From Stramenopiles sp. TOSAG23-2 (Eukaryota), in contig LT649248.1 in assembly GCA_900128395.1 (NCBI GenBank), positions 1 to 61,616 of the forward strand: a DNA stretch of 61,616 bases, read 5' to 3'. Each line of letters begins with the position of its first letter. Positions within the stretch are counted from its first letter, which is position 1. The notes beneath the pieces are model-generated. The model worked only from the letters and a program-made list of their open reading frames with translations, had not been told where the DNA came from and ran no database searches. Positions 1 to 22,758 of this stretch are shown in pieces. The translations under genes were made by a program, and so were the position numbers.

Positions 1-431
1 AATAAAAATTATTCGAAAACTGAAAATTTAATTATTTAAGTGTTGTAAATTTTAATATCGGCAGATGGAGCATATGGAGCATTTGAAGCGTTTGAACACC
101 CCCCACCCCCACTACCCGACCACCCGACATAAAACGGAGCAGCTCTACAGATGTATACCAGTATAGTGTGCCATACTCCGGGTATTATACCTGAGCATAT
201 AAACTTAGCATTGCAAGCGAAGCGTATATAATAAGTGTGCCAGTGTGCCAGCTGGGCCAGCAGCACAGTACTATATGAATTAATTCTTCACATTTTGCAT
301 TTTGATAGCAACCATAGGCTTGTTAGTATATGGTCAATAATTAATTCTTCACATTTGTTTCGAGAGTCGAGAGGGTACCAAAATCGTACTTGATAGAATA
401 TATGAAATTTGATAGGTGCCAAGTTTACACC

Positions 432-590
432 GAGTCTTCGCTTGCGCTCAGAATTCCTAATTCTGGGCTGTATAGCAGGCGAAGATGAGGGGATCGAGTA
501 AGCTATTAGCCTTTAGCCTTAGACTTCTTATAGTAGGGCTTAGGGGAAGACTCTGCGCTTGCCAGAGTAGGGCTAGTGGCCATTTACATT
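432..590 (+). ncRNA. Candidate structured non-coding RNA (family not identified)
   Basis: GC-enriched island with nested stems that need G-U pairs on the + strand: gtcttcgcttgc/gcaggcgaagat (12 bp), gctcagaatt/aattctgggc (10 bp), gctattagcctt/agggctagtggc (12 bp) enclosing agcctta/tagggct and actctg/cagagt. Confidence 0.4.
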
Positions 591-880
591 GGCCAGTATG
601 ATATAATACTTTCGCCACAACAACAAAAAAATGAATGTATAATAATAATAATGTATAATATGTTAAAAAAAGAGAAGCAAAGTTTTATTAATAAAGATAC
701 ACATACTAGAGCCTATATATGCATTAATATAATATAAGTACTTCAGATCTTTAGATTATTTTATTATATATTTCGTTATAAAAGGTAAATTATATCGTTT
801 AGAAACATTTGGCATCTGTTCTTTCAACTTGTATCCCCCAAAACATCACAAACAGCTTGATTTAATACCCAGGTTACACA

Positions 881-3800
881 ATGTCGGATGATAGTGGTGA
901 TTTCAGACTTCCAAAGCGCAAGTGGAGAAAAAGTCGCAAAAGTAAAGGAGCTAAAAGTAAACGCAAAGTAGAAGAGCAATCAAACAAGACTTTACAGTAT
1001 GAAAATGCTATTATAGACGAAAACGATATTGAATTAGGAATAAAGCGATCTTCGACTGATGTTGAAAAAAGTTATTGGGAAGAGAAAGAGGTTGAAAAAA
1101 GTTATGACGAAGAGAAAGAGGTTGAAAAAAGTGATGGTGAAGAGAAACAAGAGATTGTGGAGAATAAAGTCTTGCATATTGTTAAAATGGATTTTGATGG
1201 CGCGGATGAAGATCATCAATTAAGTTTTAAAAAAGGTGCAATTGTTTTGCTTGACGATAATAGTGATGACAATGATATGGTTGAAGTCTACCTTCAAAAT
1301 GACCCGTCTCAACGTGGCTTTATTAAAAAAGACCATTTGGAAGTATATGATGCAAAAATTGGTGATATCATATCGGTTTATCGTGAAAGTTGGGGTGATG
1401 ATACATATGTAGGTAAAGTCTTGAATATTGGAAATGATGGAAGGATGGAAGTAGAATTTGAGGATGAAACTCTTAATGATATTATTATGGATGAAATATG
1501 CCATGTAGAAACCGATAGATTTAATAAAGCACTATATGCAACAAACAAACTCTTTACAAAATTATATGAGGCAACCGGTGCTGAGCAAAGTTTAAACGAT
1601 ATCGACGAAATAATAAACGGTGTGGAAATTAAAGAAATTGAAGGAGAGACTGTTTTTCAAAAGTTTCCCTTACCGGAGATCAAAGTCATGGCAGAGAATC
1701 GCAAAGGCCATAAAAAAGCGATGATGTGTTGCCACATATTGATTATTTTATCCTGTATCTTTCTGTTACTATTTCATTTTAAAGCACAACGTAAGATTAA
1801 CACAGGCGACTTCATTCCTTACGGAAAGGATTTGTTTATACGAAGCAACGGATGTGATGTGAACTTTATACACCTAATTACAGCCGGACACATGGACAAA
1901 GAAGAAACAACGAGTGCACAAGCTCAAGCCAAAGGTACATTTATGAAGGTAACAGAAACATTGGATCTAATGTATTTAATAAATTATTATGGTTCTTTGC
2001 TTGCACACGTTACCGAAGATGTTGATCCATGTCTTGATTCCGAAGAGAAAATAGAGCAGTTTAAAGACAATTATTGCATTTCTTACATTCACAATGAACT
2101 TTATTTTGGGCAATTTGCAAGGTATTTTGACCCAACTTTATTAACAACAGATGGCAGTATTGTTAAAATAGTGGAAACAGATAAAAAAGTTGAAATTGTT
2201 GCATTTGAAGCGCTAGACTCAAAGACGTTTTGTGAAGTTAATGTCTGGTTAAGCAGTGGTTTAAACAATGTAACAATAATGCAAACTGGACGACCAATAA
2301 AAGTAAATAAAATTGACAATTCAATGGTTCATGTTAAAGAAACATGCGAATGCGAGGGAGGAACGTTATTTTCGCAGAAGCAAGTTTGCCTCTGCGAAAA
2401 CGAGGCGGAAAGAACTACAGAATCCAAATTAAGAAATAAAAAAACCAGCAATAGAGTATCAGATTCGAAATTCATAGTGAAACAAGAGATTTACGAATAT
2501 TCAAAGAATGGAAATTGGAGATTAAATATAGATAATTTGCAAATTAACGGAACAAACTTAGATCTCAATATGACGAACGTGAAAGTAAAGAAAATTAGCA
2601 TGTTTGTACAAAGTGGAAATATTCAAATACATGGGCTTCAACTAAATAGCTCAGGTGTTACATCATGCAATAATGGAGATGAAACTGATATTCGCGGTAG
2701 ATGCAATCACACGATAAAAGTAGGGATTGATCTAGGAAAAGTTAATGGGATAGGAATAATTAAAGCGAATGGTCAAAACCTCTGTGCCCCGAATGGCCCA
2801 AAATCTTGCGAAGGAAATTTACATCTCACAATGGTTACACCGACAAGAATTAAATACTCTCAAAACAATGGTATTGTGTGTGGTGCAGCACACGGTATTA
2901 AAGTCGAACACTCAAACTGTAAGGTTCCAACACAGGCGAATAGAAATAAAAATTATAATAATGATAATAATAATAATGCTTCAAATAGTTCAACAGACAT
3001 TGATAGTATAAACCCCGGCGATCCAAATAGTGACATTGGTTCAATAGACATTGAAGCTGTATACAACAGTACTAACAACAACACTAACGACGCAAATTCA
3101 AATTATGGTGACACCAGTACATGCGAAGGGCAGGCGATACTTTGTACTACTGGTGTCATAGACTTTAATGCTGATATCGATTTTTCTTTCGACACTCCGC
3201 TAATGGGATGCACGGAGGATGAAGAAATTGAAAACATTGAGACTTTTGTAAATGGTGGTGGTTTATACTTTGGTGTTGTAAAATACAATGCTACGCAAAC
3301 TCAATTTGTTAACAATCGCCACACTGTGGACGGTTTACCATGCATTTTCCCATTTAAATATAAGAATAAAATGTATTATGATTGTACGTATGAAGATTAT
3401 GATTTACCATGGTGCACAACTAATTTTGATTCAATTTTAAATCCCAAAAGATTAAACGAAGCGAGGATGGAAGATATAAAAACATGTCCTTCCAACGGTA
3501 CATACATAAATGGCACATATTTGAATAGTACATATTCGAATGGTACATATTTACCTGAATGCGATCCTAATTATCAACAATTAGACGGAAACGACCAGTG
3601 GGGTGTCTGTGAAACGTATGAAAAAATAGAAGGTTATGCTTATAAACTGAAGAATGTAGACAAAATCAGATTTGACAAGAAAAGCAATGCCCTTTTAAAA
3701 GATGTTATTCCATTTGAAAATTTACTTTTAAATGATCCAATAATTGCTTCGATCGAAATGGTAAGCAAAACTAGTGCAAGAGGGCGATCATTTTGGTTAT

Positions 3801-6800
3801 ACGCAACAAGTCCTTCGCATTTGTTGGTACGAAATGACGGGTTACTCATCAATTCCCTTGGACTAGTAAGTGCAAGGTATTTCTATCCAGGTTCTCCAAT
3901 CCGTGTAAGTCCCGGGCTATGCCCGGTGGAAGTTCTTCCAGATGGAATGTTGACTACGCACCAAATGGGCGAAGTTAGCAAAAGCATGGCAAATAAGATA
4001 GGCGTGTCTGGTTTAAGCCGTCTTGCATGGTTTGGAAATTTTGAATTTTTACCTTTTCTAAGAGGATCAACAGTATGGAAACAAGAATGGATTTACAGAA
4101 AAGATGGGTCGTTTTTCCCTCAACTTGGGTTTTTAGAACAAGAGTTGGCGGTTGGCACTATGTTTTTCAATGCAAAAGAAGGTGGCGGCGACTTTTTAAG
4201 CGGTTATGTAGAGACTTCAATAACAGATGATCCATTGTCAGCTGCAGCTCTATTTGCTTTAGTTTTAAGTTATGGTTTATCGGGTATTTGGTTTATCATG
4301 TCTTTTTTTATTGTATTTCCAGCGTTGTTTAATTATATTAATGTTAAATTTGCCGAATATGTTAGAAAAAGGCGAAAGCTTAGCATAACGGAACGCCGTT
4401 TAGAATTAGATAAAAATAAAAAAAAACGAGATCATAAATCCTTAGATGAGACTATTGCAACCGGTAAAAAAGACAATGGTGATTTTTGGGAAGGCGCAAA
4501 ACATTTAGATGATGCCGTATCTATGCTGATGGATGAGTTAGATCCTGAACAAAGTTTGAACGACAATAACGCTGGAAGTGATAAAAGGAACGGGAAAAAA
4601 GACAAGGGGAAAAAAAAGCCCGGTGTTTCTTGTGGATATGTGCATAATAGCGTATTGTGGCTAGCAGCAATAATTATATCTGTCATTATATTTGTCGTTT
4701 TTTTATCCGTCGAACCTGATGGTACTATGTGGACGTTTTATTGGACATACCCGTTCATTATTTTTACGCTTTTAACTCTTTTTTTAACTCGCGAGAGCAG
4801 TTATATAAATTGTTGCAAGTGGATTCTGGAACCGCCAGAAACAGCGGTGAAATCAAAAACTGTAATTGCGGATTTGCATGACAAATTTAACCTGCTAAAA
4901 ATGATTCGTAGTAATTATCGTGCAAAATCTGTCATTGACAGGAACAAAATTAAAATAGAGGAGATCACAGAAATCTTCGATGAGTTAAAGCATAAGTTAA
5001 ATGATGAAAAATACGTAGAAAGTTATAGAAAAAAAATTAATTATTTTTGCGAACTTACAAGCGAGAAAGTAGATGAAATTACACGCAAGATGGAAATTAT
5101 TGATCATGCATGGCTAAATATTGAACTAAACAAAGCTTATTACGTTGATAAATTAACATTTTGGGAAATCCCTGTTATTATGTACCAGATATTTGTTGCT
5201 CCTAAGCTTAAGAATTCTTTAAATGGTTTTGTACATGATGAAATTATTAATGATGATCATTTATTTAATAAATGGTTTTGGAATCAGTCGTTGATGTACC
5301 AATATATAATTACTGTTTTGTTCATAGTAAGAAAAATCGGAATGAAAACCTTTCCTTATGTTGACTTAAGTCTAAAAAATATTCTAGAACTTTTCAAGCG
5401 TGAAAATTTTTTCGAGTTTGAACTGTACAGCAAATATTCGGGCGCAGGTTCGGGCGATGATTCGTATGATGAATCATCATCATCTGATGTCGAAGAAAGC
5501 GACGGAGATGTTGACGAAGAATCTGACGAAGAATATGATGAAGAATCTGACGAAGAAAATGATGAAGAATTTGACGATGATGAATCTGACGAAGACGATG
5601 ATGAAAGTGGGGAAGACAGTGTCGCTGAATCGGATGCAGATGAAGAGTGGGATTCAGATAGTTGTTTTCGTCGATGTCTTTGTTGTTTTTCAGGTGAAAA
5701 GTCGGATTCAGAACCTGAAAGATGTCCAATATGTAAGAAAGAAAAAGATCCAGATCCAGAGAGTGATCCAGAGAGTGAATACGAACTGGATTCAAATGAC
5801 GGGTCGGTGGATTCCGATGAAGTGTCCGATTCAGATGAAGTGTCCGATTCAGATGATGTGTCCGATTCAGATGAAGGGTCTGATTCAGATGAAGTGTCCG
5901 ATTCAGATGAAGTGCCCGATTCAGATAGTTGTTGTCGTCGTTGTTGTCATCGTGGTGAAGTGTCCGATTCATATTATTGTACTTGTCCCATTGGAGTTGG
6001 AGCTTATTTTCGCTTTCATGATATCAGGTGTTTCGTTAATTACTACAGTACTCACCAATTTTCTAAAAGTAGTTACATGGTTAGAGGTTATAAAGAGGTA
6101 GAAGAATCGAAAGGAGTAACGTTGAAAAAGTTTAAATTGACTTATGATTCATACTGCGATACAAAGGGATTAGCAAAAATGCCTTTAAACACAAAATCCA
6201 TAAATGATGTATGTCAAAAATTTGGAATTGAATATGATAAAAACAAAGAAATATTTAAAAAAGTAAAGCTGCTGAAAAACTTTAAAACTACTCGTGGAGG
6301 CTTCGAAAATGAAATGGATGATAGCAAAGAGAAATTTTTCTTCGGTCCAATTTGTTTTTTGGTGTACATTTTCTTTAGTTCGTGGTTTTTCATGTTGTTT
6401 TTAGTATATGGTATCATCAAACGTTTTTTCCCCGCACAGCAACAACTATTTTTATCTCTTCGAATTGCTGCATTGTTGTCTTTCAGCATGCCTCTGGTCA
6501 TGATTGTTTTTTTGTATCATTATGCAACCTATGACTACTTTACATTGCCATTTTACCAATATGATGATTTCTTGTATCGCCCATACAAAATTTATTCAAC
6601 AAGTTTTTTGGGATTTGGCCAAGTTATTTTATGGTTATCCGTTTTTTTATTGATACTTGGCAGTGCTGATTTATTATTATTTTACTTGCTAGGGGAGGTA
6701 AATTACTCGACAAAAATAGTTTACGCCTTCAAGCGAGGCGAAAAGGTATTAAAAAAAGAAGATAGCATGGGATTTGTAAAAAAATATTTTGGGAACTGTT

Positions 6801-9800
6801 GCACATCGAACTGTTGCACATCGAACTGTTGCACATCGAACTGTTGCACATCGAAAGGGAAAAAAAGCAATAAAAACGACACTGAAAATAGCACTGAAAC
6901 GAAAGCAAATGGCCAGGACACTCAGAAAAAGGACAACCTCAAGAAAGGTATTTCCTATGAAGTAATTAATGTAAATGTAAAAAAAGATGGTTCCATCGAT
7001 GGGTATGAATTACGAGAACACGTGCGACAAAAAATACAAGGCGCTGCATACTGCGGAATTTTTAGTACTAATTACAGAAAAATATGCAAATATCAATTAG
7101 GTGATATTGTATCTGTAGTTTCTAAGAAGAAGAACGATGACGAAGAAGAGAAAAATGGAAATAAAAAAGGTGAATATCAATATCAGCTGGTGGATTATAA
7201 GAAATGGAAGAGGAAGAGGAAGAAATGGAAGAGGCAGAAGGAGCCACAGGAGGCGAAAGAAGGAGATGGCGAGACTTACGATTGGGAACAGAATGGATGG
7301 AAAAGAGTTTTTACGAAAACGATGCAAGAAATCGTCCCAAATTATAGATTAGATATTAAAAACATATGGTATTTACTTTGGTATGTCAGTAAATTTTTGC
7401 AAGCATTTATAAATTTTTTTTTTCTCTTAGTTCTTGATTTTGCAATATCGATTTTGCTCGCATATGTAACTATGGTCTTTACTTGGTGGATTTTGGGTGC
7501 CGTTGTTAACCCGGAAAGAATACTGGCGTTTGCTTCTGCTGTAGTAGTATTCATTGGAACTATTAAACAGATGGTAACAGATCTAAAAAGTATGAAAGAG
7601 GAAGCGACTACAAAAATTAAAAAAGTAGTAGAAAAGATGATACAAGATATCATTGCTAAATCCAGTTCGATGTCCAAAGCAATCGCTAAAAATGTTAAAC
7701 TTCCTAAATTGCCAGGCGCATTCTCCAGTCTAGATATGAATGCATTAGAAATATATAGCCTTGTGAAACAAGATGGTGGTGTGAAAAAGCTCTCTAAAAT
7801 GGTTGTTGCTGCATCCTTTCAAGAATTTGTGACGAAAGAAAAGATCAAGAAGGATTCCGACACATATTCATTAGTCATGATTGTACAAGAATTAGTCGAA
7901 TGCCTACTATTAAAAAAATCAGAACAGCTAAATGCGTTTGGAAAAGTGGCAAGTAAGATGATATTATTGTTGTTAAATAGTGGTGGAAAAAATAAAACAC
8001 AAAACGAACAAAAAAGTCTAGAAGATGATAAAAATGATACAGAGATTATCCATAAGTTATTGCAAAGTTTGGTTGTACTAGGTATCGAGTCAAAAGATAA
8101 TGTTACTGTTCGAAGAGCAATTACGTCATTTGAAGAGTGTTTTTTCTTGATTATAGAAAAAGAAAACATCAATGCTGACTTTATGAAATACGTTTTTGTA
8201 TTTTTAAAAATGATCACAGCTGATTTAAAAATATTACAATCTTGCATGAAACGCGTAACCAATCTGTTTGACAGTAACCCTGAAACGGGAAAGAATGATA
8301 AAGAGCAAGTTATAATTAGAATACAAAATATTTCAGTGAATCTCCTGAAATTAATGATATCCTTTTCCAGTTTGAATTTTATGAATGTAGTTATTAAAAA
8401 TGTATTATTAAACGGAGAAGTAAAAATTGGCGAAGAGTTTTTTGATTTACGCTTTGTGGAAAAATTTGAAAAAGAATTTTTTAAATTTGTAGAAATAACT
8501 TATAAATCCAGAGGGAAAATTAGCGAAGTTGAGAGGGCGGGAGAAAATATTATCAAAATTTTTGTAAACAATAGCATGCAAAAGTTAACAAATAACATAA
8601 AAAAAGATGGAAAAAAAGCTTCTATTGTGAAGGTGGTACGACCTTTAGGGAAAGAAATTGCCAAAGCGACCGGTCAAATGTTACACCAGATAATTGAAGA
8701 CACTACTAGTAAAGGAAATGTACAAAAAAAGAATACAGCCAAGTCAGTAACTGCTGCGGATTTACTTAATTTTTTCAAAAACATATTGTCCCATATGATG
8801 GACATAATGTCTGATAATAGTATTAATAATTATATGGGAAAAGAAGCACATGGTAAATTCGTCAAAGAAATATGGCAACCAATTCGTTTAGATGTAAACT
8901 ATGATTTAGTCAAACCAGTTGAAAAACAGTTTCGAAATATTTTTAGTAAATTATTGATATTCCTTAAAGATAAAGCAAATGAAACAGAAGAAAAAGAAGG
9001 TAAAAAAAACTTGATATCACTAAAAATGGAATTATTTGCCTTTTTCTTAAATATGTTTTTTGGACCCAAGAAGGAAGGAAGCAGGGAGGAAAACCATAAC
9101 CATTCCAATAAATATTTTGTAAATGCTGTCATGAATTTGGGCATCATTAAGAATAACAAGATAAAAGTAGACAAAGTAAAGAAAATGATTGATACATTGA
9201 AAGACATTGTAAAAACACAACTGTATTTAAAATTGTGCAATGAATGCGTTGAGTGTGGTAAGGCACGCAAAGACAAACGTAAAAACTATTGTAAAGACTG
9301 TCGAGACAAAAAAAATGAAAAGGAAAAAATCAAAGTGGTTTCTGATAGAAAAAATCGCATTGAGAAAATAAAAAAGACGATTAAGCCTATATTTGACACA
9401 TTACGGGAAATGCAATCTGGTTTAGCTAAGTTTCTAAAAGATGACATAAAAGACGAAGAGGCAAGTAATGGCAAGATCGAAAAATTAAATAGCTTGGATC
9501 TTGCATTGGATCTTGTTGCAACATACATAAATGCTTTAATTGAGTTTTCAATATCATATTTAAAGCAAGAAATGAAATCTGGTCTTGATAAAATTAAATC
9601 ATGGAGTAAAAGTAAGACAAAAAGAACCAAGCAAACAGAAACAGAGGGTGAGAATAAGAATTGTGTGGATACAGTGATTGATTTATTAAATCGTACAAAC
9701 AAATATATAGAGAAAGTCAAAGAAGCTTTCGAAAAAGCTATCGATGAAAAAAAAACCAAAGCTTACAGCGGGATCAAGGAAGGTCTTGATAATATATATA

Positions 9801-11197
9801 ATCTAATTGTTTTTGGTTTAAATGAATTAAAGGATATTGATAAAAAAATTGAAGATAGCACGGTGAATCAATCCGATTCAAAGGAAAAGAATAATGAAAA
9901 ACAGAAATTGTTAATTAAACGTTTTAATTCTATGAAAAAAGTGTTCATTTCATTAACTTTATGCATTTGTGATATGTTTACTACATATGGACTTAAATTT
10001 CAAGGAAAACTTAAGGAAGGAGAAACGGAGATAACAAAAGTTATCATTGATATAATGACCTTTATCCCACCATCTTTGTCACATATGAAAGTCATTATTG
10101 CATATTTTATTTCAATATTTGGTATTCCAGAATTAATTGTGACAAGCTTGAAAGAGTTTGTAAATATGTTGATTTCAAATAATGGTAATAAAAAATCACA
10201 ATACATGAACAAAAGGGTACATTTAATTTTTGATGCCTTTTTTAGTCAAGAAAATATTTTGAAATTACAAGATCTAATGCGGTCATATATTCGAACCGTG
10301 CGTAACAATTTGGGTAAGGATACCGGCGAAGAAATGTCAGACATTATTGAATTTTTCAAAACAAACATAAGAGATATGAGTACAAGAATAGCAAAGTCTC
10401 TAGGTGATGAAATGTTAAAAGTATTCCAAAAAACATATTTTCCAGACATAAAAGCGCCGACGATAGATGGAGCAAAAAATCTAATGGTTACCTTGTATAA
10501 ATTTTCAACAATGAAAGATAAAACTAATGCTATGAAAAATATATTAATTCAATTTCTCGATACGAAATATGGCGCATTGGATGATCCAAAACAAGCAAAG
10601 CAAAAAATTAAAATTATTGATTTTATTGAAAAGTGCGAAGAAATACGTAAGATTATTAAAAAGTTGCGAACAGATAAAACGAAGACAACTAAAATTTCAA
10701 AGGAAGAAAAATATCGACGAATATTCAAAGAAGTTGATACTAGTGGAGATGGTTTAATAGATTTCGATGAATTCAAAGTTTTAGTTAACAAGACTTTAAG
10801 CTTAAGTATGGCACCTCAGCGTTTAAAGGATATGTTCTCTATGTGGGATACTAATAATGGTGGTAATCTTGATATCCATGAATTTGAAAAAGCTATGGAA
10901 GATTTAGAAGGCGAAATTACAAAATCATGCATACACAAACTTGGTCTATCCGAACAAACCGTCTATCCAGTTTTATTTTGTCTTGCAGTGTATATGATTG
11001 GAGTCCTAGGCTTTATTTTAATGGGTTTTGCGGCATTTACCGCTGGCACAGCATTTAGTGCTGGTATCGGCTCTATCCTGCCATTGGTTGCCGGGAAATC
11101 AGCTAGCTTCGGGAATTTTATTAAAAATGTCAATTTTGAGGAACTAGTGGAGAAAGTATTGAAAACAGATTTTCAAGGGAAGGAAGAAGATGAGTAA
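881..11197 (+). CDS. Giant multipass membrane protein (3438 aa) with SH3, Tudor-like, fibronectin type II, acidic/Cys repeats and a C-terminal EF-hand pair
   Basis: Uninterrupted 10.3-kb ORF. SH3-like DFDG..QLSFKKG..RGFI (~1178-1351); FN2 TVDGLPCIFPFKYKNKMYYDC..PWC..WGVC (~3323-3610); many hydrophobic segments; EF loops DTSGDGLIDFDEF and DTNNGGNLDIHEF. Confidence 0.85.
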   Translation: MSDDSGDFRLPKRKWRKSRKSKGAKSKRKVEEQSNKTLQYENAIIDENDIELGIKRSSTDVEKSYWEEKEVEKSYDEEKEVEKSDGEEKQEIVENKVLHIVKMDFDGADEDHQLSFKKGAIVLLDDNSDDNDMVEVYLQNDPSQRGFIKKDHLEVYDAKIGDIISVYRESWGDDTYVGKVLNIGNDGRMEVEFEDETLNDIIMDEICHVETDRFNKALYATNKLFTKLYEATGAEQSLNDIDEIINGVEIKEIEGETVFQKFPLPEIKVMAENRKGHKKAMMCCHILIILSCIFLLLFHFKAQRKINTGDFIPYGKDLFIRSNGCDVNFIHLITAGHMDKEETTSAQAQAKGTFMKVTETLDLMYLINYYGSLLAHVTEDVDPCLDSEEKIEQFKDNYCISYIHNELYFGQFARYFDPTLLTTDGSIVKIVETDKKVEIVAFEALDSKTFCEVNVWLSSGLNNVTIMQTGRPIKVNKIDNSMVHVKETCECEGGTLFSQKQVCLCENEAERTTESKLRNKKTSNRVSDSKFIVKQEIYEYSKNGNWRLNIDNLQINGTNLDLNMTNVKVKKISMFVQSGNIQIHGLQLNSSGVTSCNNGDETDIRGRCNHTIKVGIDLGKVNGIGIIKANGQNLCAPNGPKSCEGNLHLTMVTPTRIKYSQNNGIVCGAAHGIKVEHSNCKVPTQANRNKNYNNDNNNNASNSSTDIDSINPGDPNSDIGSIDIEAVYNSTNNNTNDANSNYGDTSTCEGQAILCTTGVIDFNADIDFSFDTPLMGCTEDEEIENIETFVNGGGLYFGVVKYNATQTQFVNNRHTVDGLPCIFPFKYKNKMYYDCTYEDYDLPWCTTNFDSILNPKRLNEARMEDIKTCPSNGTYINGTYLNSTYSNGTYLPECDPNYQQLDGNDQWGVCETYEKIEGYAYKLKNVDKIRFDKKSNALLKDVIPFENLLLNDPIIASIEMVSKTSARGRSFWLYATSPSHLLVRNDGLLINSLGLVSARYFYPGSPIRVSPGLCPVEVLPDGMLTTHQMGEVSKSMANKIGVSGLSRLAWFGNFEFLPFLRGSTVWKQEWIYRKDGSFFPQLGFLEQELAVGTMFFNAKEGGGDFLSGYVETSITDDPLSAAALFALVLSYGLSGIWFIMSFFIVFPALFNYINVKFAEYVRKRRKLSITERRLELDKNKKKRDHKSLDETIATGKKDNGDFWEGAKHLDDAVSMLMDELDPEQSLNDNNAGSDKRNGKKDKGKKKPGVSCGYVHNSVLWLAAIIISVIIFVVFLSVEPDGTMWTFYWTYPFIIFTLLTLFLTRESSYINCCKWILEPPETAVKSKTVIADLHDKFNLLKMIRSNYRAKSVIDRNKIKIEEITEIFDELKHKLNDEKYVESYRKKINYFCELTSEKVDEITRKMEIIDHAWLNIELNKAYYVDKLTFWEIPVIMYQIFVAPKLKNSLNGFVHDEIINDDHLFNKWFWNQSLMYQYIITVLFIVRKIGMKTFPYVDLSLKNILELFKRENFFEFELYSKYSGAGSGDDSYDESSSSDVEESDGDVDEESDEEYDEESDEENDEEFDDDESDEDDDESGEDSVAESDADEEWDSDSCFRRCLCCFSGEKSDSEPERCPICKKEKDPDPESDPESEYELDSNDGSVDSDEVSDSDEVSDSDDVSDSDEGSDSDEVSDSDEVPDSDSCCRRCCHRGEVSDSYYCTCPIGVGAYFRFHDIRCFVNYYSTHQFSKSSYMVRGYKEVEESKGVTLKKFKLTYDSYCDTKGLAKMPLNTKSINDVCQKFGIEYDKNKEIFKKVKLLKNFKTTRGGFENEMDDSKEKFFFGPICFLVYIFFSSWFFMLFLVYGIIKRFFPAQQQLFLSLRIAALLSFSMPLVMIVFLYHYATYDYFTLPFYQYDDFLYRPYKIYSTSFLGFGQVILWLSVFLLILGSADLLLFYLLGEVNYSTKIVYAFKRGEKVLKKEDSMGFVKKYFGNCCTSNCCTSNCCTSNCCTSKGKKSNKNDTENSTETKANGQDTQKKDNLKKGISYEVINVNVKKDGSIDGYELREHVRQKIQGAAYCGIFSTNYRKICKYQLGDIVSVVSKKKNDDEEEKNGNKKGEYQYQLVDYKKWKRKRKKWKRQKEPQEAKEGDGETYDWEQNGWKRVFTKTMQEIVPNYRLDIKNIWYLLWYVSKFLQAFINFFFLLVLDFAISILLAYVTMVFTWWILGAVVNPERILAFASAVVVFIGTIKQMVTDLKSMKEEATTKIKKVVEKMIQDIIAKSSSMSKAIAKNVKLPKLPGAFSSLDMNALEIYSLVKQDGGVKKLSKMVVAASFQEFVTKEKIKKDSDTYSLVMIVQELVECLLLKKSEQLNAFGKVASKMILLLLNSGGKNKTQNEQKSLEDDKNDTEIIHKLLQSLVVLGIESKDNVTVRRAITSFEECFFLIIEKENINADFMKYVFVFLKMITADLKILQSCMKRVTNLFDSNPETGKNDKEQVIIRIQNISVNLLKLMISFSSLNFMNVVIKNVLLNGEVKIGEEFFDLRFVEKFEKEFFKFVEITYKSRGKISEVERAGENIIKIFVNNSMQKLTNNIKKDGKKASIVKVVRPLGKEIAKATGQMLHQIIEDTTSKGNVQKKNTAKSVTAADLLNFFKNILSHMMDIMSDNSINNYMGKEAHGKFVKEIWQPIRLDVNYDLVKPVEKQFRNIFSKLLIFLKDKANETEEKEGKKNLISLKMELFAFFLNMFFGPKKEGSREENHNHSNKYFVNAVMNLGIIKNNKIKVDKVKKMIDTLKDIVKTQLYLKLCNECVECGKARKDKRKNYCKDCRDKKNEKEKIKVVSDRKNRIEKIKKTIKPIFDTLREMQSGLAKFLKDDIKDEEASNGKIEKLNSLDLALDLVATYINALIEFSISYLKQEMKSGLDKIKSWSKSKTKRTKQTETEGENKNCVDTVIDLLNRTNKYIEKVKEAFEKAIDEKKTKAYSGIKEGLDNIYNLIVFGLNELKDIDKKIEDSTVNQSDSKEKNNEKQKLLIKRFNSMKKVFISLTLCICDMFTTYGLKFQGKLKEGETEITKVIIDIMTFIPPSLSHMKVIIAYFISIFGIPELIVTSLKEFVNMLISNNGNKKSQYMNKRVHLIFDAFFSQENILKLQDLMRSYIRTVRNNLGKDTGEEMSDIIEFFKTNIRDMSTRIAKSLGDEMLKVFQKTYFPDIKAPTIDGAKNLMVTLYKFSTMKDKTNAMKNILIQFLDTKYGALDDPKQAKQKIKIIDFIEKCEEIRKIIKKLRTDKTKTTKISKEEKYRRIFKEVDTSGDGLIDFDEFKVLVNKTLSLSMAPQRLKDMFSMWDTNNGGNLDIHEFEKAMEDLEGEITKSCIHKLGLSEQTVYPVLFCLAVYMIGVLGFILMGFAAFTAGTAFSAGIGSILPLVAGKSASFGNFIKNVNFEELVEKVLKTDFQGKEEDE
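1058..1147 (+). repeat. Coding 30-bp tandem repeat x3 (EVEKSYxEEK)
   Basis: Three imperfect copies of ga(t/g)gttgaaaaaagt..gaagagaaa. Confidence 0.8.
5810..5926 (+). repeat. Coding 18-bp tandem repeat x6.5 (DSDEVS)
   Basis: Repeated gattcagatgaagtgtcc with minor variants. Confidence 0.9.
6794..6853 (+). repeat. Coding 15-bp perfect tandem repeat x4 (NCCTS)
   Basis: aactgttgcacatcg x4. Confidence 0.95.
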
Positions 11198-11651
11198 AAA
11201 AAAAAAAAAAGAGCTTTAATAAAAAACGTCGTAAAATCCAACATATTCGTACACCTAAATATAAAAACTGCGGTGGTGCCCAAAAACATTCCCCCACATT
11301 TTATAATTTACGGTAGCTATATTGCAGTTAATCGTATACTGCATGTACAAGTTTCGGTATTTTGAATGCTATTTGCCTGCTATTTATATTAATTGGTTTT
11401 TTTTTGTCTTCTTCTCGGCCATTAATTATTCATTTAATTCTTCTTCATTTAATTCATTTAATTTACAGACTTACTTCAAAAATTTGAAATATTTTTTAGA
11501 TGCTCGAGATACGTCTGTCTATTGTGTCATAGATATAGAAACGAATATAAGCGTGTGTATTATTCCGTGTGTTTTTTTTAATCTTTTTTGTTTTCTTCTT
11601 CTCTCTCTCTTTTTTTTTTTTTTTTGTGGTTCAGAATAATTTTTTACAAAG

Positions 11652-14069
11652 ATGATGGAAGAAAAAAATATTACATTAAGAGTTACAATTGGTAGAGCTT
11701 TGCGTGGCAGTGGAAGAATTATACATACAACATTGAAAGCAAATGTTAAAAATGGTAATCATACAAACAATTTTTGTACAAATATATATAATGTTTTAGT
11801 CAATAATTCATATTGTAAACCAAGTATAATCGATCAAGGATACGTTCCATTTGCATTAAGCTTTACAAACAATGATTCACTAAAAATAAATGAATCAACA
11901 CGCGATACAACACAACACGGTAAACAATGGAAACAATTGCAAAATATTATTGAAATAAAATCTATCATCCAAGTAATATCAACTATGTCATCTTCATCTT
12001 ATTTAATTGATATACGTTTAGTACGAAAAGATATTGCTACTGATTTTGGTAAAAAGAAGATTGAGAACCCAAATCGTACTTCATCAAAGTCATCATCATC
12101 ATCATCATCATCATCATCGTATTTTGGTGTTGGTATTGTAGGTGAGACGAAAGATGCACATCATGGTACATTATTACGAAGTTCATATCAATATGGTGCA
12201 TCTTTTATTTGCACAATTGGTGGAAAACATAGTAAACATACCATGCGAGATACAGACACAAGTAAAGCATGGTGTTACATTCCGATATTTTCCTATCCAA
12301 CTGTTGAAAAATTAACAAATTGTGCACCATATAATTGTCCATGGGTAGCTTGTATTGATGGACCAGGTGGCATCCCATTAAATGAATTTAAACATCCACA
12401 ACGAGCATTGTATTTATTTCCAGGAGACGATGATACATTATTGCAAACAATTTTACCAAAATGTAAATTTCATATTTCCCCACCACGATCGACAAAATAC
12501 AAAGGTGCAGAATTAACAACTTCTCCAATATTTGGAAGTATGGTATTGTATGATCGTCATGTGAAAGAAAATTCCTATAAACAACTATTGAATATTGGTT
12601 CTGCTTCAAAAAATCATAAACGAAAGGCAGCAACAAATAATAATAATCAAGTATCTTTACAAAAAAAAAGTAGAAAAAAAAAAGGTAATAATACAATGAT
12701 GATGGATGTTGACAACGATGACGATAAAGATGAAGACGAAACGTCTATTCATAGTGTACGCGAATGGGAAGAAAAATATTATAATTATAAAAATGTGTTA
12801 CATGTAAATAAAGAGAAAGAAAAAACATTGAATCATCTTGAACAAAATCAAATGAAGCATTATATTGCAATATGGACAAATCATGCTTATAAAAATAGAT
12901 TAGCAGTATATTTACGTGATATATACAATTTATATATTGTTGCACATTCAAATCAATTATGTATTTTCAATAGTGTTAGAAATAATAATAATAATAATAA
13001 TGATGACAACAACAACAACAATGTAAATGAAAATTATACAACATTAGAAAAATTATGCCATGATAGTTTACCCTTACGTGCAATGAAATTTTGTATTATA
13101 TATAATCACATAGTAGATAATACAAATCAAATATGTCAACTCATTGTAAATCATTATGATAGTATTAATAATAGTAATAATAATAATACGAAAGATAATA
13201 ATAGTAATAAGAAAATAGTATATCGTATACAAACACGTCCAAATACTTTGACAAATAAAATCATTCCATTATTACCAGATAAAATAGAATTAAATCCAAA
13301 AGTATTTACACATGTAATTTATATAGCATTACAAGACTTTTCCATTAAAAGTACTGATACTACTAATAAGGATAATAATAATAATACATCATTATTATTA
13401 TTGAAATATTTTGTTGGAATCGTTGATAAAAAATTTAATTATAGTACATCTAATGGTTCAAAATTAGGACTAAAATTTTTCGAAAAACCAAAAATATCAC
13501 GTGCATATTATAAATTACATGAATTGGAACAACGTAAGTTAGTACAATTTGTTAATACTAATAATATGAATAACAATAATAACAACGCCAATGAAAACAA
13601 AATTATATCATTAGCAATTGATATTGGTGCTTCGCCTGGTGGATGGACTGAATTTCTAGTTGAAAAACAAAATCGTATGGTATTAGCAATTGATCCTGGG
13701 AATATGGATGAAAAATTAATGAAGAATCCTAATGTAATACATATTAATAAAAAAATGGAAGATTCGATGGAGATAATCAATTCGTATGCATCAAATACAA
13801 GCAAATATTCATTAGATATGATCGTATGTGATATGAATATGGATCCAAGAGATTCTGCACGTATATGCAGTCAAGTTGTTCCATATTTAAAAACAAATGG
13901 AATATTAATATTGACAATTAAATTGGTATTACATGGTAAAAAAATGTACGAAGAATTTTTAAATGAAACATCAATACTTTTATCAAATGCTGGATATAAA
14001 ACTGTTAAAGAATTATGGTTGTTTGCAAATGGTAGACATGAAAGAACATTAATTGCATATAAAGAGTAA
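11652..14069 (+). CDS. FtsJ-family (RlmM-like) RNA 2'-O-methyltransferase with a long N-terminal extension
   Basis: C-terminal ISRAYYKLHE, AIDIGASPGGWT, VLAIDPG, VCDMN, LTIK motifs of the FtsJ/RlmM fold. Confidence 0.8.
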   Translation: MMEEKNITLRVTIGRALRGSGRIIHTTLKANVKNGNHTNNFCTNIYNVLVNNSYCKPSIIDQGYVPFALSFTNNDSLKINESTRDTTQHGKQWKQLQNIIEIKSIIQVISTMSSSSYLIDIRLVRKDIATDFGKKKIENPNRTSSKSSSSSSSSSSYFGVGIVGETKDAHHGTLLRSSYQYGASFICTIGGKHSKHTMRDTDTSKAWCYIPIFSYPTVEKLTNCAPYNCPWVACIDGPGGIPLNEFKHPQRALYLFPGDDDTLLQTILPKCKFHISPPRSTKYKGAELTTSPIFGSMVLYDRHVKENSYKQLLNIGSASKNHKRKAATNNNNQVSLQKKSRKKKGNNTMMMDVDNDDDKDEDETSIHSVREWEEKYYNYKNVLHVNKEKEKTLNHLEQNQMKHYIAIWTNHAYKNRLAVYLRDIYNLYIVAHSNQLCIFNSVRNNNNNNNDDNNNNNVNENYTTLEKLCHDSLPLRAMKFCIIYNHIVDNTNQICQLIVNHYDSINNSNNNNTKDNNSNKKIVYRIQTRPNTLTNKIIPLLPDKIELNPKVFTHVIYIALQDFSIKSTDTTNKDNNNNTSLLLLKYFVGIVDKKFNYSTSNGSKLGLKFFEKPKISRAYYKLHELEQRKLVQFVNTNNMNNNNNNANENKIISLAIDIGASPGGWTEFLVEKQNRMVLAIDPGNMDEKLMKNPNVIHINKKMEDSMEIINSYASNTSKYSLDMIVCDMNMDPRDSARICSQVVPYLKTNGILILTIKLVLHGKKMYEEFLNETSILLSNAGYKTVKELWLFANGRHERTLIAYKE

Positions 14070-18314: not shown

Positions 18315-18836
18315 ATGTCGTTACCATCAAGACGTTCAAGACGATTGCCTGGCAATGGCAGTAGCAGTAGTAATAGAACACCAATATTAACGGAAAGGGA
18401 ACAATTAGTAAAAGTGAAAAATATGTCTATAACATTATCCACACGTCGTAGTAGTAATAATAATAATAATAATAATAACCCCTTATCTTCTCGGAGATCA
18501 GCAATGGCAGTATCAAAATTTTCATCTAGAGCATTAAAAAAGAAAAATATACCATCCGCAAGAAGTAAAAATGGATCAACATCACGTAGCCGTCGTCGTC
18601 GTCGTCCACAAAGTGCACCTCGATTACGTACTACTAATAGCAATCCAAATAATAATAATAACAATAATAGAATATATATAGATGATAATTTATCATCATC
18701 AACCAAAGATAAATATAAAGTATCCAGTAGCAGAAGAAATGTAAAACAATCATCAAGATTAACAACATCAAGAATCCAAGAGATGAATAAACAAAATAAC
18801 AGTAATAATACACCTCTTGTTGAATGGAGTATAAAA

Positions 18837-18867
<31 letters not shown>

Positions 18868-21077
18868 GTAATAGAAAAAGTAATAGATCCAATAATACGA
18901 ATAAAATTTCATCAAATAATACTACTGAAATTGAACGTCGAATTATGGAAAAAATACATAATCAAAGAATTGAGGAAAAAGCAAGTGAAATGTATAGACG
19001 TTTAAGTGAACGTGCAACACAAAAATTTGGACGTATTGATGAGAGTTTTTTACATGATTATCACGTAGATGATGATGGCTTAATACCATTTGATGCGTTT
19101 TGGGAAACCGTAAATGGCATGTATGGAAAACAAATATCTAAAACAACAGCTAGAAAAATATTTGATTTAACAGATGATGATGGCGATGGTAAAATTTCTA
19201 TTAATGAATTAAGAGAATCATACGATAAAGCAAATATGAAATTACATAGTGCACGTGTTATTGATGTAAATAATATTAATAAACGGGATAGAACACCTAT
19301 AGTCGATAAAATTATAAAACAAATTCGTCAAGTATATAAAGATAAAAGTTCATTATTAAATGTTTTTCGTGCTGCGGATGAAGATCATAATGGGTATGTC
19401 AATGAAATAGAAATGCAACATGTTTTAAGCGGTTTAGGATTAAGTACATCGTTAAAGGAATGTGGTGAATTATGCGATTATTTCGATGCGGATGGTGATG
19501 GCAAAATTGAATACGATGAATTTATTGCATTCATTTCAACCCAAGGTGGTGAACACCATGAACAACATCATAAAGAGGAAAAAAACAAAGGAATACCAGA
19601 AGGGTTAAAGGAATTACATGCAATGCAAGAGCGCTTGTTGCAACGAAATCAAAGTATAGAAGGACCAAAGGAAAAAACAGTTGGAATTGATACGGTAGCA
19701 AAAATTATACGTGATAAATACGGTCGTAGAAATTCACTTAGAAAAGTATTTAGGGATTGGGATATAGATAAAAATGGCAAAGTTTCCAAGGAAGAAATGT
19801 TAGATATATTGCATCATATGGATGTAAAAATGAAAGATGATGATTTTGAATCATTATATGAAAAATTTGATGAAGATCATGAAGAAGGTGTGTCTTATAA
19901 CGAATTTATTGACTTTATTTTCCCTGCAAATCCCGATCAAGATGCACATATAAAATTAAAATTAGAGCAAGAAAAAATGCGTTTAGAAGCGGAAAAAATT
20001 AAAAACGTTACTCCAGGAACATTGGAGGAAGCAATGTTAATTGAAAAAATAAAAAAAAGTGTATTTGAACGATTGTCACGGAAAGGCAATAAAGGTACAT
20101 TAAAGGAGGCATTCCGAAAATTTGATTTAGATCATGATGGACAAGTTACCTATGATGAATTTCGCACTGGGATGAAAAATTTAGATAGCAGATTAACTGA
20201 TGGTCATATTGATATTTTATTATCCCAATTTGATAAAGATAATAGTGGTTCCATTGATTACCTTGAATTCGTTGCAAATGCATCGGAGCAAAATAATGAA
20301 AATGTTATGATGCAATATCACAGTCGATTAAAACGAAGTAATACGGAACGGGGGCATTTATTGCGAAAATCAGGCCAAACACGTGCACGTCGTAGACCGG
20401 CAACTGCAATCGCTGGGTTAACATTACACAAAAGTGCAAGTGCAAGCTTAGCAAAAGCTGCATCTGCATCAAATTTAGGCGCATTAAATTCAAAACGAAA
20501 TTTCATGCCATATACAGAACGTATGCGAAGGAAACGATTAAAATATATTATCCCACCAAGTGGTTCCAGCCGGGAAAGACATTTTCATTTTAAAGCATTG
20601 TATAATAGAAAACATGTACCACGTAAAGATAGTAATACGCCATATTATGATACTAGAAATTTAATCAATTTACCTGATGAAGGCAATAATTTCCAGACAC
20701 GTAGATTTAACATAGATCATGATCATGGATATTATACGACAAATATATCTGCATTACACAGCCGTCCATTATCACAACATGCAGGGCATCGTGCAGAAAA
20801 TATAGAACAAGCAAGAAGCGATTTAAAAGAATCAAGAAGATGGGGTAGAATAAAACGCAAACAAGAAAATTTTGCACGAATTTATAAAAATGAAATTGAA
20901 CCAAATAGATACAGAGAGGAAGATAAACGTGAAGCAAAAGTTACTAGTTTATTACGTCAACGTATGAATTATTTTAAATCATTAGAAAATAGATTTGAAC
21001 AAGATGCAGCATTACAAAAAGTATGTGGATTTGTAAAAGCAAATGATAAAAATAAGAGTGAAAATAAGATATATTAG
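18315..21077 (+). CDS. Multi-EF-hand calcium-binding protein (920 aa)
   Basis: About 8 EF loops: DDDGDGKISINE, DEDHNGYVNEIE, DADGDGKIEYDE, DIDKNGKVSKEE, DLDHDGQVTYDE, DKDNSGSIDYLE and others; basic low-complexity termini. Confidence 0.9.
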
Positions 21078-21195: not shown

Positions 21196-22758
21196 TTATA
21201 ATCGACTCCGATCTACCCCTATTCCGATGACTCCGCCAAAACCACCACCATCTTTCTTCTTACGAATATTATCATTCTTGACTTCTACGAATAAATTTTT
21301 ATCAGTATACCTATGAGGTAGAACTTTTTTCATATGTGCAACTAATTGATCAAATTTTGGAGGTAAAAAAGATGCCCTTGTTAATGTTCCCCATCCTGAT
21401 GCATCGACGACTTCTTTTGGTAAATGTTGGCCAGCAATTCGAATTGAAACAAAATCTTGGAAGAAACATTGTAATCCCCATTTTTCTTTACGATCATGTT
21501 CTAATATAACACGTGGCAATTCTCTCCAAAATTGATCCAACGTTCCTAAATACCATGCATGCGTTAAAAACTCACATGATGGTCCTCCACCATGTAAACA
21601 CGTTTGTGGACTCAACACTAAATTATCTTCACTGACAATAGGTTCATGTTTACTAACATGCTCTGCATATTGATCTGTACAATTTATAATAAATGAACCT
21701 ATTGGTATTTCATGTTTCATAATAGTACCAACACGATTCTTTCTTAAATCTTTTAAGATTAACTCTAATGTTTGTGGGTTGCTATTGTTATAATTAATAT
21801 CAATTAAATGAGCTTTAAATATCTTTTCATTTGCTGGTGATAATACTTGTTTTATTTGTTCAACTTCTGCTTTTGAGCAAATTGCATTCATATGACTCTC
21901 TGGATCAGGGAATGGACTATGAAAAAATCCTTCTTTATTCCAAAAATTAAATACATCTTTTTCATTACTACCATTATACATTAACATACCTTTTATATTT
22001 GCATTTGCCGCTCTTCCACGTCGTACCATAAAATAGGTTCCATGTCCTGAAATACAATACATACGGTTCGTTACCCTTGATCCAAGTTCCGTTGACATTG
22101 CGTTCATTGCATCTACAGCTGTTTTACCACTACCAATAATATAAATTGGCTTGTCTTTATCTTTTGAAAAAAGCATCAATGCATTTGTAGCTGGTAATAA
22201 TACATCATTTGCAGTTAATGAATGAAATTTATCATTAACATTTTTACTCTCGGCAAATACAAATGATGCTTTGACTTTAAGATCATATCCATTTCCTTTT
22301 ATTAGTCGATTAGCAACAACGTTGATTTTGTGGATTGTATTGTTGTTAAATAATGGATATGCCATTATATTGACCTTTTTTGATTTTACGTTATGACCGC
22401 GATATTCATATCCCCATAATTCAATTATTTCAATACCTTTTTTGACTTTAATTTCATTAATACAATGTTTAAAATAATTTAATATTTCACCACGAGTTGC
22501 TAAATGTGATCTTTGATCGTATGTTCTTGCCAACGGCCATTTATGATCACCAACTGCATATCCTTCAAATGGTTGATGCAATGTGCAATATTTATATTGC
22601 GTTGGCCAGTGGCCGCCCCAATCTTCATTTCTTGCGATACAAACTATTGTCGACCCTTTGGGTAAATAATGCGACGCTGCATTTACTGCATTAATCCCTG
22701 CATATCCATTTCCAATCACACATAAATCACAATGAAGAGTGGTTGTATTGTGTTCCAT
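21196..22758 (-). CDS. FAD/NAD(P)-dependent oxidoreductase (flavin monooxygenase-like), PTS1 -SRL
   Basis: DLCVIGNGYAG FAD-binding motif, WGGHW, second Rossmann motif IIGSGKTAVD, C-terminal SRL. Confidence 0.8.
   Translation of the reverse strand: MEHNTTTLHCDLCVIGNGYAGINAVNAASHYLPKGSTIVCIARNEDWGGHWPTQYKYCTLHQPFEGYAVGDHKWPLARTYDQRSHLATRGEILNYFKHCINEIKVKKGIEIIELWGYEYRGHNVKSKKVNIMAYPLFNNNTIHKINVVANRLIKGNGYDLKVKASFVFAESKNVNDKFHSLTANDVLLPATNALMLFSKDKDKPIYIIGSGKTAVDAMNAMSTELGSRVTNRMYCISGHGTYFMVRRGRAANANIKGMLMYNGSNEKDVFNFWNKEGFFHSPFPDPESHMNAICSKAEVEQIKQVLSPANEKIFKAHLIDINYNNSNPQTLELILKDLRKNRVGTIMKHEIPIGSFIINCTDQYAEHVSKHEPIVSEDNLVLSPQTCLHGGGPSCEFLTHAWYLGTLDQFWRELPRVILEHDRKEKWGLQCFFQDFVSIRIAGQHLPKEVVDASGWGTLTRASFLPPKFDQLVAHMKKVLPHRYTDKNLFVEVKNDNIRKKKDGGGFGGVIGIGVDRSRL

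Follow-up and report, generated by a model that had tools for sequence, protein, structure and literature searches.

The gene, RNA contigs and relatives

The window, that is, the whole 61,616-nt stretch of DNA analysed here (contig LT649248.1 of the GenBank assembly GCA_900128395.1 of Stramenopiles sp. TOSAG23-2, positions 1 to 61,616 of the forward strand), contains a very long open reading frame (ORF) which is a genuine single-exon gene for a multi-pass membrane protein (Table 1). The ORF starts with the ATG at position 881 and ends with the stop codon at 11195-11197, and the 10,314 nt frame is uninterrupted. GC content along the ORF is 29-36%, and a chance origin of a 10.3-kb open frame of such composition is impossible. 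Since an in-frame TAA is located at 863, 18 nt upstream of the ATG, 881 is the earliest start available; a diverged relative, the protein fragment P0081, begins at a Met equivalent to the first Met of the ORF. Three inner ORFs of at least 150 residues (5394-5972 and 9286-9759 on the minus strand, 5400-6101 on the plus strand) are taken as by-products, mostly over repeat-rich or low-complexity DNA.

Table 1. Positions in the window of the ORF and of the features of its product (TM, transmembrane segment)
Feature	Residues	Position	Strand	Basis
Whole ORF	1-3438	881..11197	+	3438 codons and stop, without intron
Divergent SH3-like domain	100-155	1178..1345	+	Pfam near miss and PDB SH3 matches
Second small beta segment ("Tudor-like" in the original prediction)	~170-209	1388..1507	+	Species-specific
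TM1	280-298	1718..1774	+	Kyte-Doolittle 2.72; FPLP motif before it, Cys pair at its inferred cytosolic edge
Family-conserved beta module, toastrack-like	548-680	2522..2920	+	Alignment of relatives
FN2 module with extended C-terminal loop	821-848	3341..3424	+	Pfam fn2 above cut-off
Juxtamembrane ecto-domain, best-conserved part	910-1122	3608..4246	+	Identity to relatives
TM2 (1127-1150), basic loop, TM3-TM4 hairpin (1257-1303)	1127-1303	4259..4789	+	Hydrophobicity
Asp/Glu/Ser-rich repeats and Cys clusters	~1540-1700	5498..5980	+	Tandem arrays of 12, 18 and 24 nt
TM5-TM7 cluster	1822-1935	6344..6685	+	Hydrophobicity
NCCTS x4		6793..6855	+	Perfect 15-nt x 4.2 tandem repeat
TM8-TM9 block, two or three spans	2172-2232	7394..7576	+	Hydrophobicity
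All-helical domain, ~1000 residues	2240-3260	7598..10660	+	Low-confidence model, ~40 helices
EF-hand pair	3276-3339	10706..10897	+	Pfam EF-hand_7 and PDB matches
C-terminal Gly/Ala-rich hydrophobic hairpin	3364-3404	10970..11092	+	Hydrophobicity

RNA contigs from four libraries of three studies map to the ORF at 95-100% identity and span positions 989-11180. In the one library of the four that was primed with oligo-dT, all seven mapped contigs (7/7) are at least 99% identical to the DNA. The mapped pieces, the longest of which is 1857 nt, are collinear with the DNA and none of them shows an intron. The intronless 3438-residue ORF of the original prediction, which had been made by a model from the letters and a list of ORFs, is borne out by these contigs and by the unbroken frame. 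RNA libraries can contain DNA, and contigs show neither strand nor ends; the mapped contigs are consistent with transcription of the ORF, short of proof. One RNA contig joining 1647 to 10601 has just 20 nt on one of its sides and was set aside as a chimera, not an intron. The bin 500-873 has zero cover in all four RNA runs, which is not evidence for a transcript start. Among the variant letters of the RNA contigs, 12 of 38 are synonymous (20% expected by chance), many of them lying near contig ends and being too noisy for a selection test. A genome-encoded run of A (11198-11211) directly follows the TAA stop of the ORF; internal priming could therefore explain oligo-dT priming or poly(A) calls made here. 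The stretch is contained in seawater and marine metagenome runs of several studies. Two near-identical protein fragments carry the source label "merc", which we take to be a marine eukaryote transcript catalogue.

A HMMER profile pass with residues 300-1330 against 1.84 billion protein representatives gave 294 matches at E ≤ 0.001; among the best 150 of these, 134 match best over the FN2 module and 16 over other parts. Word-based searches among shorter proteins gave ten matches for residues 1780-3438 and two for residues 1100-1540. These 12 and the 16 above add up to 28 fragments, which come from public genome and metagenome protein sets and are named nothing beyond "hypothetical protein"; all of them (28/28) align to the ORF product by BLASTP: 14 at 87-100% identity and 14 at 27-59%. 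The former appear, by their identity, to belong to the same or sister populations. The diverged ones cover residues 4-1212 and 2264-2810, preserve the reading frame and have a common order of elements: the FPLP motif, TM1, a GC-D/S-V/I-x-F motif, the beta module, FN2, the juxtamembrane domain, TM2 and a basic stretch.

A near-full-length search of 5.8 billion proteins for relatives of 1890-6017 residues gave 3188 candidates, none of them at E ≤ 0.001. ESM Atlas contained no usable match to residues 1780-3438 and 860-1560, and scanning for the relatives' DNA in metagenome contigs (two scans) and in viral contigs gave 442, 596 and 53 pattern matches, none of which was confirmed by tblastn. No named family was found over the full length or the membrane core in Pfam, PDB sequences, ESM Atlas or the 5.8-billion-protein search. 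The original prediction, correct for most of the architecture, had not recognised it from any named family, and indeed no characterised full-length family was matched. As judged by these comparisons, the ORF appears to found a small unnamed family, so far known as fragments, for which restriction to a lineage is the best reading.

Some source contigs of the public fragments appear to be chimeric: the last ~30 residues of P0153 are a piece of photosystem II D1 (psbA), and P0163 starts with foreign sequence. The 53 spurious matches of the helical-domain profile to photosystem II D1 in the PDB (profile positions 578-609), the one protein in the PDB that this profile matched, are an artefact of the P0153 tail. 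MAFFT misplaced the FN2 tails of the fragments when the query contained the Asn-rich insert described below.

Chimerism of this kind, at the ends of P0153 and P0163, and the absence of a single diverged fragment or RNA contig spanning the whole ORF are what one would cite in favour of a mis-assembly fusing two or more genes, or of a decaying pseudogene. Either is extremely improbable given the unbroken frame and the DNA runs of several studies, which contain 47-100% of the sampled words of the ORF. Every module boundary from the N-terminus to TM2 is bridged by fragments, and near-identical fragments cover parts of the rest, where residues 1213-1403, 1516-1811, 2155-2252 and 2816-3043 are unmatched.

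Domain architecture

The region between TM1 and TM2 (residues 299-1122), which makes up 24% of the protein, contains 24 Cys and 14 of all 29 NxS/T sequons, in agreement with the Cys-rich region of about 800 residues with many such sites that had been noticed at the outset. The presence of sequons and cysteines between these two segments fits exposure to the secretory pathway. The beta module located here aligns with five relatives (P0040, P0060, P0089, P0135, and P0150) at 28-42% identity. Its residues 548-594 match the Pfam Toastrack family DUF4097 (PF13349) with E 0.0023 and 17.8 bits against the cut-off of 22.9, while P0060 matches the same profile positions with E 9.5e-5 and 22.3 bits against the same cut-off. 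Such a sub-cut-off match was found in two of the six aligned family members. A profile of the module gave three matches among PDB sequences, all with E ≥ 1.3. Judged by these profile scores, the module may be called toastrack-like, not a member of DUF4097. An Asn-rich spacer (residues ~700-800), absent from the relatives, is located between it and the FN2 module.

Assignment of residues 821-848 to FN2 is firm by profile score, which exceeds the curated cut-off, as the original prediction would have it. Pfam fn2 (PF00040) matches with 28.5 bits against the cut-off of 22.2 (E 1.5e-6) in the whole protein and with 32.2 bits (E 1.1e-7) in the segment, the alignment being limited to profile positions 1-30 of 42. 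The aligned part holds three Cys; the fourth is located 22 residues after the third, past a longer loop, and the relative P0025 likewise has a Cys past a longer FN2 loop. PDB matches of the module are the IgY receptor, factor XII, PDC-109 and fibronectin. Three diverged relatives (P0040, P0060, and P0025) have an FN2 module at the equivalent place. The module had been introduced as one best known from metazoan proteins; its presence is confirmed, but it is not animal-specific, as Plasmodium CCp5 and FNPA carry FN2 according to the available part of the source (PMC10892792).

The juxtamembrane domain is 59% identical to P0007, 55% to P0116, 47% to P0069 and 33% to P0042. It has no Pfam match, its profile found no match among PDB sequences, and a Pfam scan of all members of its alignment gave nothing consistent.

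The N-terminal part contains no hydrophobic N-terminal signal, the first peak in the hydrophobicity scans being located at residue 280, and TM1 is preceded by a polybasic stretch and the SH3-like domain. Taken together, these features fit a cytosolic N-terminus. Assignment of residues 100-155 to a divergent SH3-like fold is borderline. In a segment scan against the Pfam SH3 families (PF07653 / PF00018), SH3_2 matches with E 2.1e-4 and 21.4 bits against the cut-off of 21.8, and SH3_1 with 15.3 bits against 22.9, so the Pfam SH3 cut-off is not reached; in the whole-protein Pfam scan SH3 was not found at E ≤ 1. All 20 PDB sequence matches of this region at E ≤ 10 (20/20) are SH3 domains. The best of them is Grb2 (E 0.0014); in the alignment with it, the Trp and Pro that usually belong to the peptide-binding face are replaced. 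The region is retained in P0081. Thus, the predicted SH3 domain is backed by the PDB matches but misses the curated cut-off.

The Tudor-like domain predicted next to it is not supported. Residues ~170-210 gave only weak Pfam matches to SH3-C_UBE2O (E 0.039) and Mind-bomb SH3 (E 0.13), no Tudor family was found in Pfam at E ≤ 10, and no PDB sequence matched over residues 170-230. The segment is missing from P0081, the closest diverged relative, and its modelled strands have a predicted local distance difference test score (pLDDT) below 50. At TM1, the FPLP motif and the Cys pair are retained in P0081 and P0065, while P0040 has the motif and a single Cys.

The long helical region of the original prediction is recovered as all-helix in a low-confidence model. 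A single hydrophobic helix (residues 3072-3090) is located inside this domain; the domain is 54% identical to P0153 across 570 aligned positions, and internal repeats were looked for in it and none were found. The two predicted EF-hands are confirmed by Pfam EF-hand_7 (PF13499), which matches above its cut-off (E 9.3e-11, 42.4 bits against 30), and the assignment of the pair is firm on this score and on PDB sequence matches to troponin C and calmodulin, with E as low as 5e-7. Both 12-residue loops are canonical on reading; position 5 of loop 2 is Gly, which the usual EF-hand pattern permits. The pair is located ~25 residues ahead of the terminal hydrophobic hairpin, which was also seen where the original prediction had placed it.

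Two structure models were built. The model of residues 2240-3438 (9-row alignment) has a mean pLDDT of 37.8 and is all helix, with the EF-hands below 50 as well. The model of residues 1-710 (8-row alignment) has a mean pLDDT of 43.7, with beta strands at residues 134-194 and 548-588; its sole confident part is TM1 (pLDDT ~85-88), and Foldseek found no match to this model in the PDB at E ≤ 0.001. The models are poor because alignment depth is lacking.

Membrane core, variable repeats and flanking genes

Hydrophobicity was scanned with the Kyte-Doolittle scale and with the Hessa scale, and both scans agree on 11 strong segments, at residues 280, 1127, 1257, 1284, 1824, 1860, 1909, 2187, 2214, 3072 and 3365. 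Two marginal segments are located at residues ~1465 and 3384. The multipass character claimed at the outset therefore stands, with at least 11 hydrophobic segments by two scales. TM2 and the downstream AEYVRKRR stretch are retained in P0019, whereas the TM5-TM7 cluster is covered solely by a 92%-identical fragment, P0152.

Positively charged loops of membrane proteins tend to be inside (the positive-inside rule). Net charge is +6 in the loop after TM2, +18 after TM7 and +45 in the helical domain, and these net-positive parts fit the rule; residues 1495-1821 carry a net charge of -62. The simplest reading of charge and hydrophobicity would place the N-terminus inside and residues 299-1122 outside. 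Cys pairs adjoin TM1 and TM4 at the inferred cytosolic edges, and the NCCTS repeats are located ~25 residues past TM7; these cysteines are probable S-acylation sites, as suggested by their positions.

The number of hydrophobic segments, at least 11, and the Gly/Ala-rich hairpin ~25 residues after the EF-hand pair bring to mind a new Ca2+-regulated ion channel or transporter, in which the scattered hairpins, perhaps of several subunits, would form the pore and the EF-hand pair would gate it. In ryanodine and IP3 receptors, too, EF-hands and C-terminal membrane helices come after a large helical part in the cytosol, and the ORF product bears a loose resemblance to them. However, neither a Pfam channel family (e.g., Ion_trans, PKD_channel, TRP or parts of RyR/IP3R) nor a transporter family was found, be it in the whole protein at E ≤ 1 or in the segments 91-230, 300-1540 and 1774-3273 at E ≤ 10 (residues 1541-1773 were covered by the whole-protein scan only). 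The membrane core (residues 1123-2240) gave four matches among PDB sequences, all with E ≥ 0.47, none of which is a channel and one of which is an ABC transporter permease (E 4.1), and the ESM Atlas searches had no usable match to add. The membrane segments are spread across 3100 residues in no recognisable bundle, and neither a charged-repeat nor a pore-loop pattern was seen on reading. The channel suggested in the original prediction hence lacks even a weak family match; such a function is improbable and could apply only to a wholly new family.

Several parts of the protein are young and variable. The Asp/Glu/Ser-rich block has 47 and 36 acidic residues per 100, and the copies in its arrays match each other at 77-92%. 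P0152 has two NCCTS copies instead of four and an additional copy of the basic KKWKRK-type 21-nt unit compared to positions 7199-7238 of the window, i.e., both arrays are polymorphic in the population. The Cys clusters described in the original prediction (CCRRCC and NCCTS x4) are present together with the acidic repeats, but the weight given to NCCTS x4 is not justified, as it is a young copy-variable microsatellite. A CxxCxxC...CxxC cluster at residues ~2786-2806 is not retained in the 54%-identical relative. Functional weight should not be put on the NCCTS array, the acidic block, the CxxC cluster, the Asn-rich spacer or the second beta segment.

The acidic block could also be regarded as the essence of the protein, if the latter were a matrix, scale or mineral-forming protein with exposed Asp/Glu/Ser repeats binding Ca2+ or other cations. 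Residues 1495-1821 include 99 acidic and 37 basic residues and 15 Cys, and this loop would face outward if the marginal segment at ~1465-1494 spans the membrane. On the other hand, young arrays with units of 12-24 nt are what low-complexity drift typically produces in AT-rich genomes, the acidic repeats lie outside the parts covered by diverged relatives, and there is no sign that the organism mineralises. We consider this function highly unlikely.

The genes around it in the window are of ordinary eukaryotic kinds, and most of them consist of one long ORF. Their products include an FtsJ-type methyltransferase, a purine nucleoside phosphorylase, EFHB-like and Dpy-30/EF-hand proteins, a CoA-transferase, an amine oxidase, a protein kinase, an aldo-keto reductase and an acyl-CoA synthetase-like protein. 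The 805-residue ORF at 11652-14069 (+) has an FtsJ-like methyltransferase domain (residues 616-730) as its sole match, with ~600 residues upstream of it unexplained. Two large EF-hand proteins are encoded at 18315-21077 (+) and 35137-38115 (+); one of them has the EFHB C-terminal EF-hand domain and many EF-hands, the other a Dpy-30 motif and an EF-hand pair. By their domains both look flagellar in type, which would fit a flagellate. No Pfam family was found at E ≤ 0.001 in the ORFs at 21196-22758 (-; 520 residues) and 23402-25534 (+; 710 residues). The 1584-residue ORF at 50668-55422 (-) has both a C3HC4 RING finger (residues 256-307; E 7e-5, which misses the Pfam cut-off) and a NAC domain (residues 661-713, E 4.5e-15), an unusual pairing; the remainder of this ORF is without a Pfam family match.

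Proposed function and relation to known systems

Overall, we propose that the ORF product is a receptor or adhesion scaffold, located at the cell surface or in a secretory compartment, whose cytosolic tail senses Ca2+. We put the probability of this reading at roughly 0.45. It is suggested by the combination of a glycosylation-type ectodomain containing FN2, a cytosolic adaptor-type domain, a membrane-pinned helical mass and an EF-hand pair near a hairpin; a Ca2+-regulated receptor or adhesion protein, as the original prediction put it, is a reasonable inference from the modules. The chain would start in the cytosol with the polybasic stretch and the divergent SH3-like domain, cross the membrane at TM1 and expose some 825 residues outside the cell or in a lumen, these being the toastrack-like module, the Asn-rich spacer, FN2 and the conserved 210-residue juxtamembrane domain. 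At least ten more membrane segments, clustered and with long loops between the clusters, would be followed by the cytosolic helical domain, the EF-hand pair and the terminal hairpin. The ectodomain would bind an external ligand, the SH3-like domain and the helical scaffold would hold cytosolic partners, and the EF-hand pair, located close to the membrane, would confer a Ca2+ response on the scaffold.

Several points weigh against this proposal. The predicted topology fails to close between residues 1304 and 1941: if residues 1822-1935 contain three spans, both the basic loop with NCCTS and the EF-hands end up outside, unless the marginal segment at ~1465-1494 spans the membrane. The block at residues 2172-2232 may in turn contain two or three spans. 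The diverged fragments leave out the membrane core, the EF-hands and the terminal hairpin, and none of them links both halves of the protein; neither model is usable as a structure at its mean pLDDT (37.8 and 43.7). The SH3-like domain is borderline, being under the Pfam cut-off and lacking the usual peptide-binding Trp and Pro, and the ligand specificity of FN2 is not readable from sequence.

The same topology evidence would equally suit an endomembrane protein (e.g., of the ER, an extrusome, a vacuole or a flagellar-base compartment), with the Cys- and sequon-rich region in the lumen and the helical domain serving as a Ca2+-dependent tether to the cytoskeleton or another membrane. One long helical domain anchored by several membrane hairpins would be in place there, and flagellar-type EF-hand proteins are encoded nearby, although neighbourhood weighs little in eukaryotes. 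No retention or sorting motif was identified, and exposed surfaces are where FN2 and toastrack-like modules typically occur according to what is known of these families, the toastrack being weakly matched in our case. Because sequence alone cannot tell the two apart, we regard an endomembrane location as unlikely, yet deserving serious attention.

The proposed receptor or adhesion scaffold can be compared to several known systems. Polycystin-1 and the PKD-REJ receptors have a giant mosaic ectodomain, many spans and a cytosolic tail, with an EF-hand link via polycystin-2. The ORF product is similar in its large mosaic ectodomain, many spans, cytosolic tail and link to Ca2+ via EF-hands. Unlike polycystin-1, it has no Pfam match to PKD, REJ, GPS/GAIN, PLAT, 7TM_2 or PKD_channel in the whole protein or in segments, while it has an EF-hand pair in the same chain, a presumably cytosolic SH3-like N-terminus and the ~1000-residue helical domain.

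FN2 is found in adhesive proteins of protists, namely, Plasmodium CCp5/LAP3 and FNPA/LAP5, which are adhesion mosaics with LCCL, PA14 or discoidin domains (PMC10892792). The available part of this source describes no membrane core, SH3 or EF-hand in CCp5 and FNPA, unlike in the ORF product; conversely, the LCCL, PA14 and discoidin domains that it lists were not found in the ORF product. The strongest non-family matches among those listed are multi-FN2 proteins from metagenomes, which have only FN2 in common with the ORF product; all five that were checked (P0003, P0005, P0008, P0010, and P0013) contain between 5 and 18 FN2 repeats, accompanied by EGF or SEA domains.

Bacterial membrane-anchored toastrack DUF4097 proteins belong to the phage-shock/Lia envelope-stress systems, as described in the part of the source available (10.1101/2020.09.24.301986), and resemble the ORF product in having a toastrack-like beta module after a membrane anchor. 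The differences are the sub-cut-off match, the eukaryotic host, the far larger protein and the lack of PspC or LiaF parts. As to the N-terminal domain, SH3 domains of Grb2, Crk and STAM are its best sequence matches, with E of just 0.0014 and the peptide-binding Trp and Pro replaced; it is uncommon for such a domain to be attached to a multi-pass protein at its cytosolic end. Among the matches listed in full-text literature searches, this domain combination is not described. We rate the ORF product as a mosaic multi-pass receptor-type protein with known modules around an undescribed core. Since protist genomes frequently encode giant orphan mosaics, a protein of this kind is not surprising.

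As a long shot, we speculate that the conserved juxtamembrane domain, the scattered hairpins and the helical domain with its EF-hand cap may together make up a new kind of membrane machine in marine protists, gated by Ca2+ or by mechanical force. It would be either a channel or a surface receptor that transmits force, would connect an extracellular FN2/toastrack sensor with the cytoskeleton and would lack a homologue in model organisms.

Uncultured protists of the sea are important grazers, and little is known of how they perceive and hold on to prey or surfaces. The value of the finding is that of a lead rather than of a demonstrated mechanism, and the protein is one among many large orphan mosaics of protists. 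It also shows FN2, and perhaps a module of the toastrack type, in a novel membrane setting. With a predicted outside-facing binding region, a huge scaffold in the cytosol and a sensor of Ca2+ combined in a single, apparently expressed chain, and with relatives in other ocean protists, it is a candidate for a sensing or adhesion device of these organisms.

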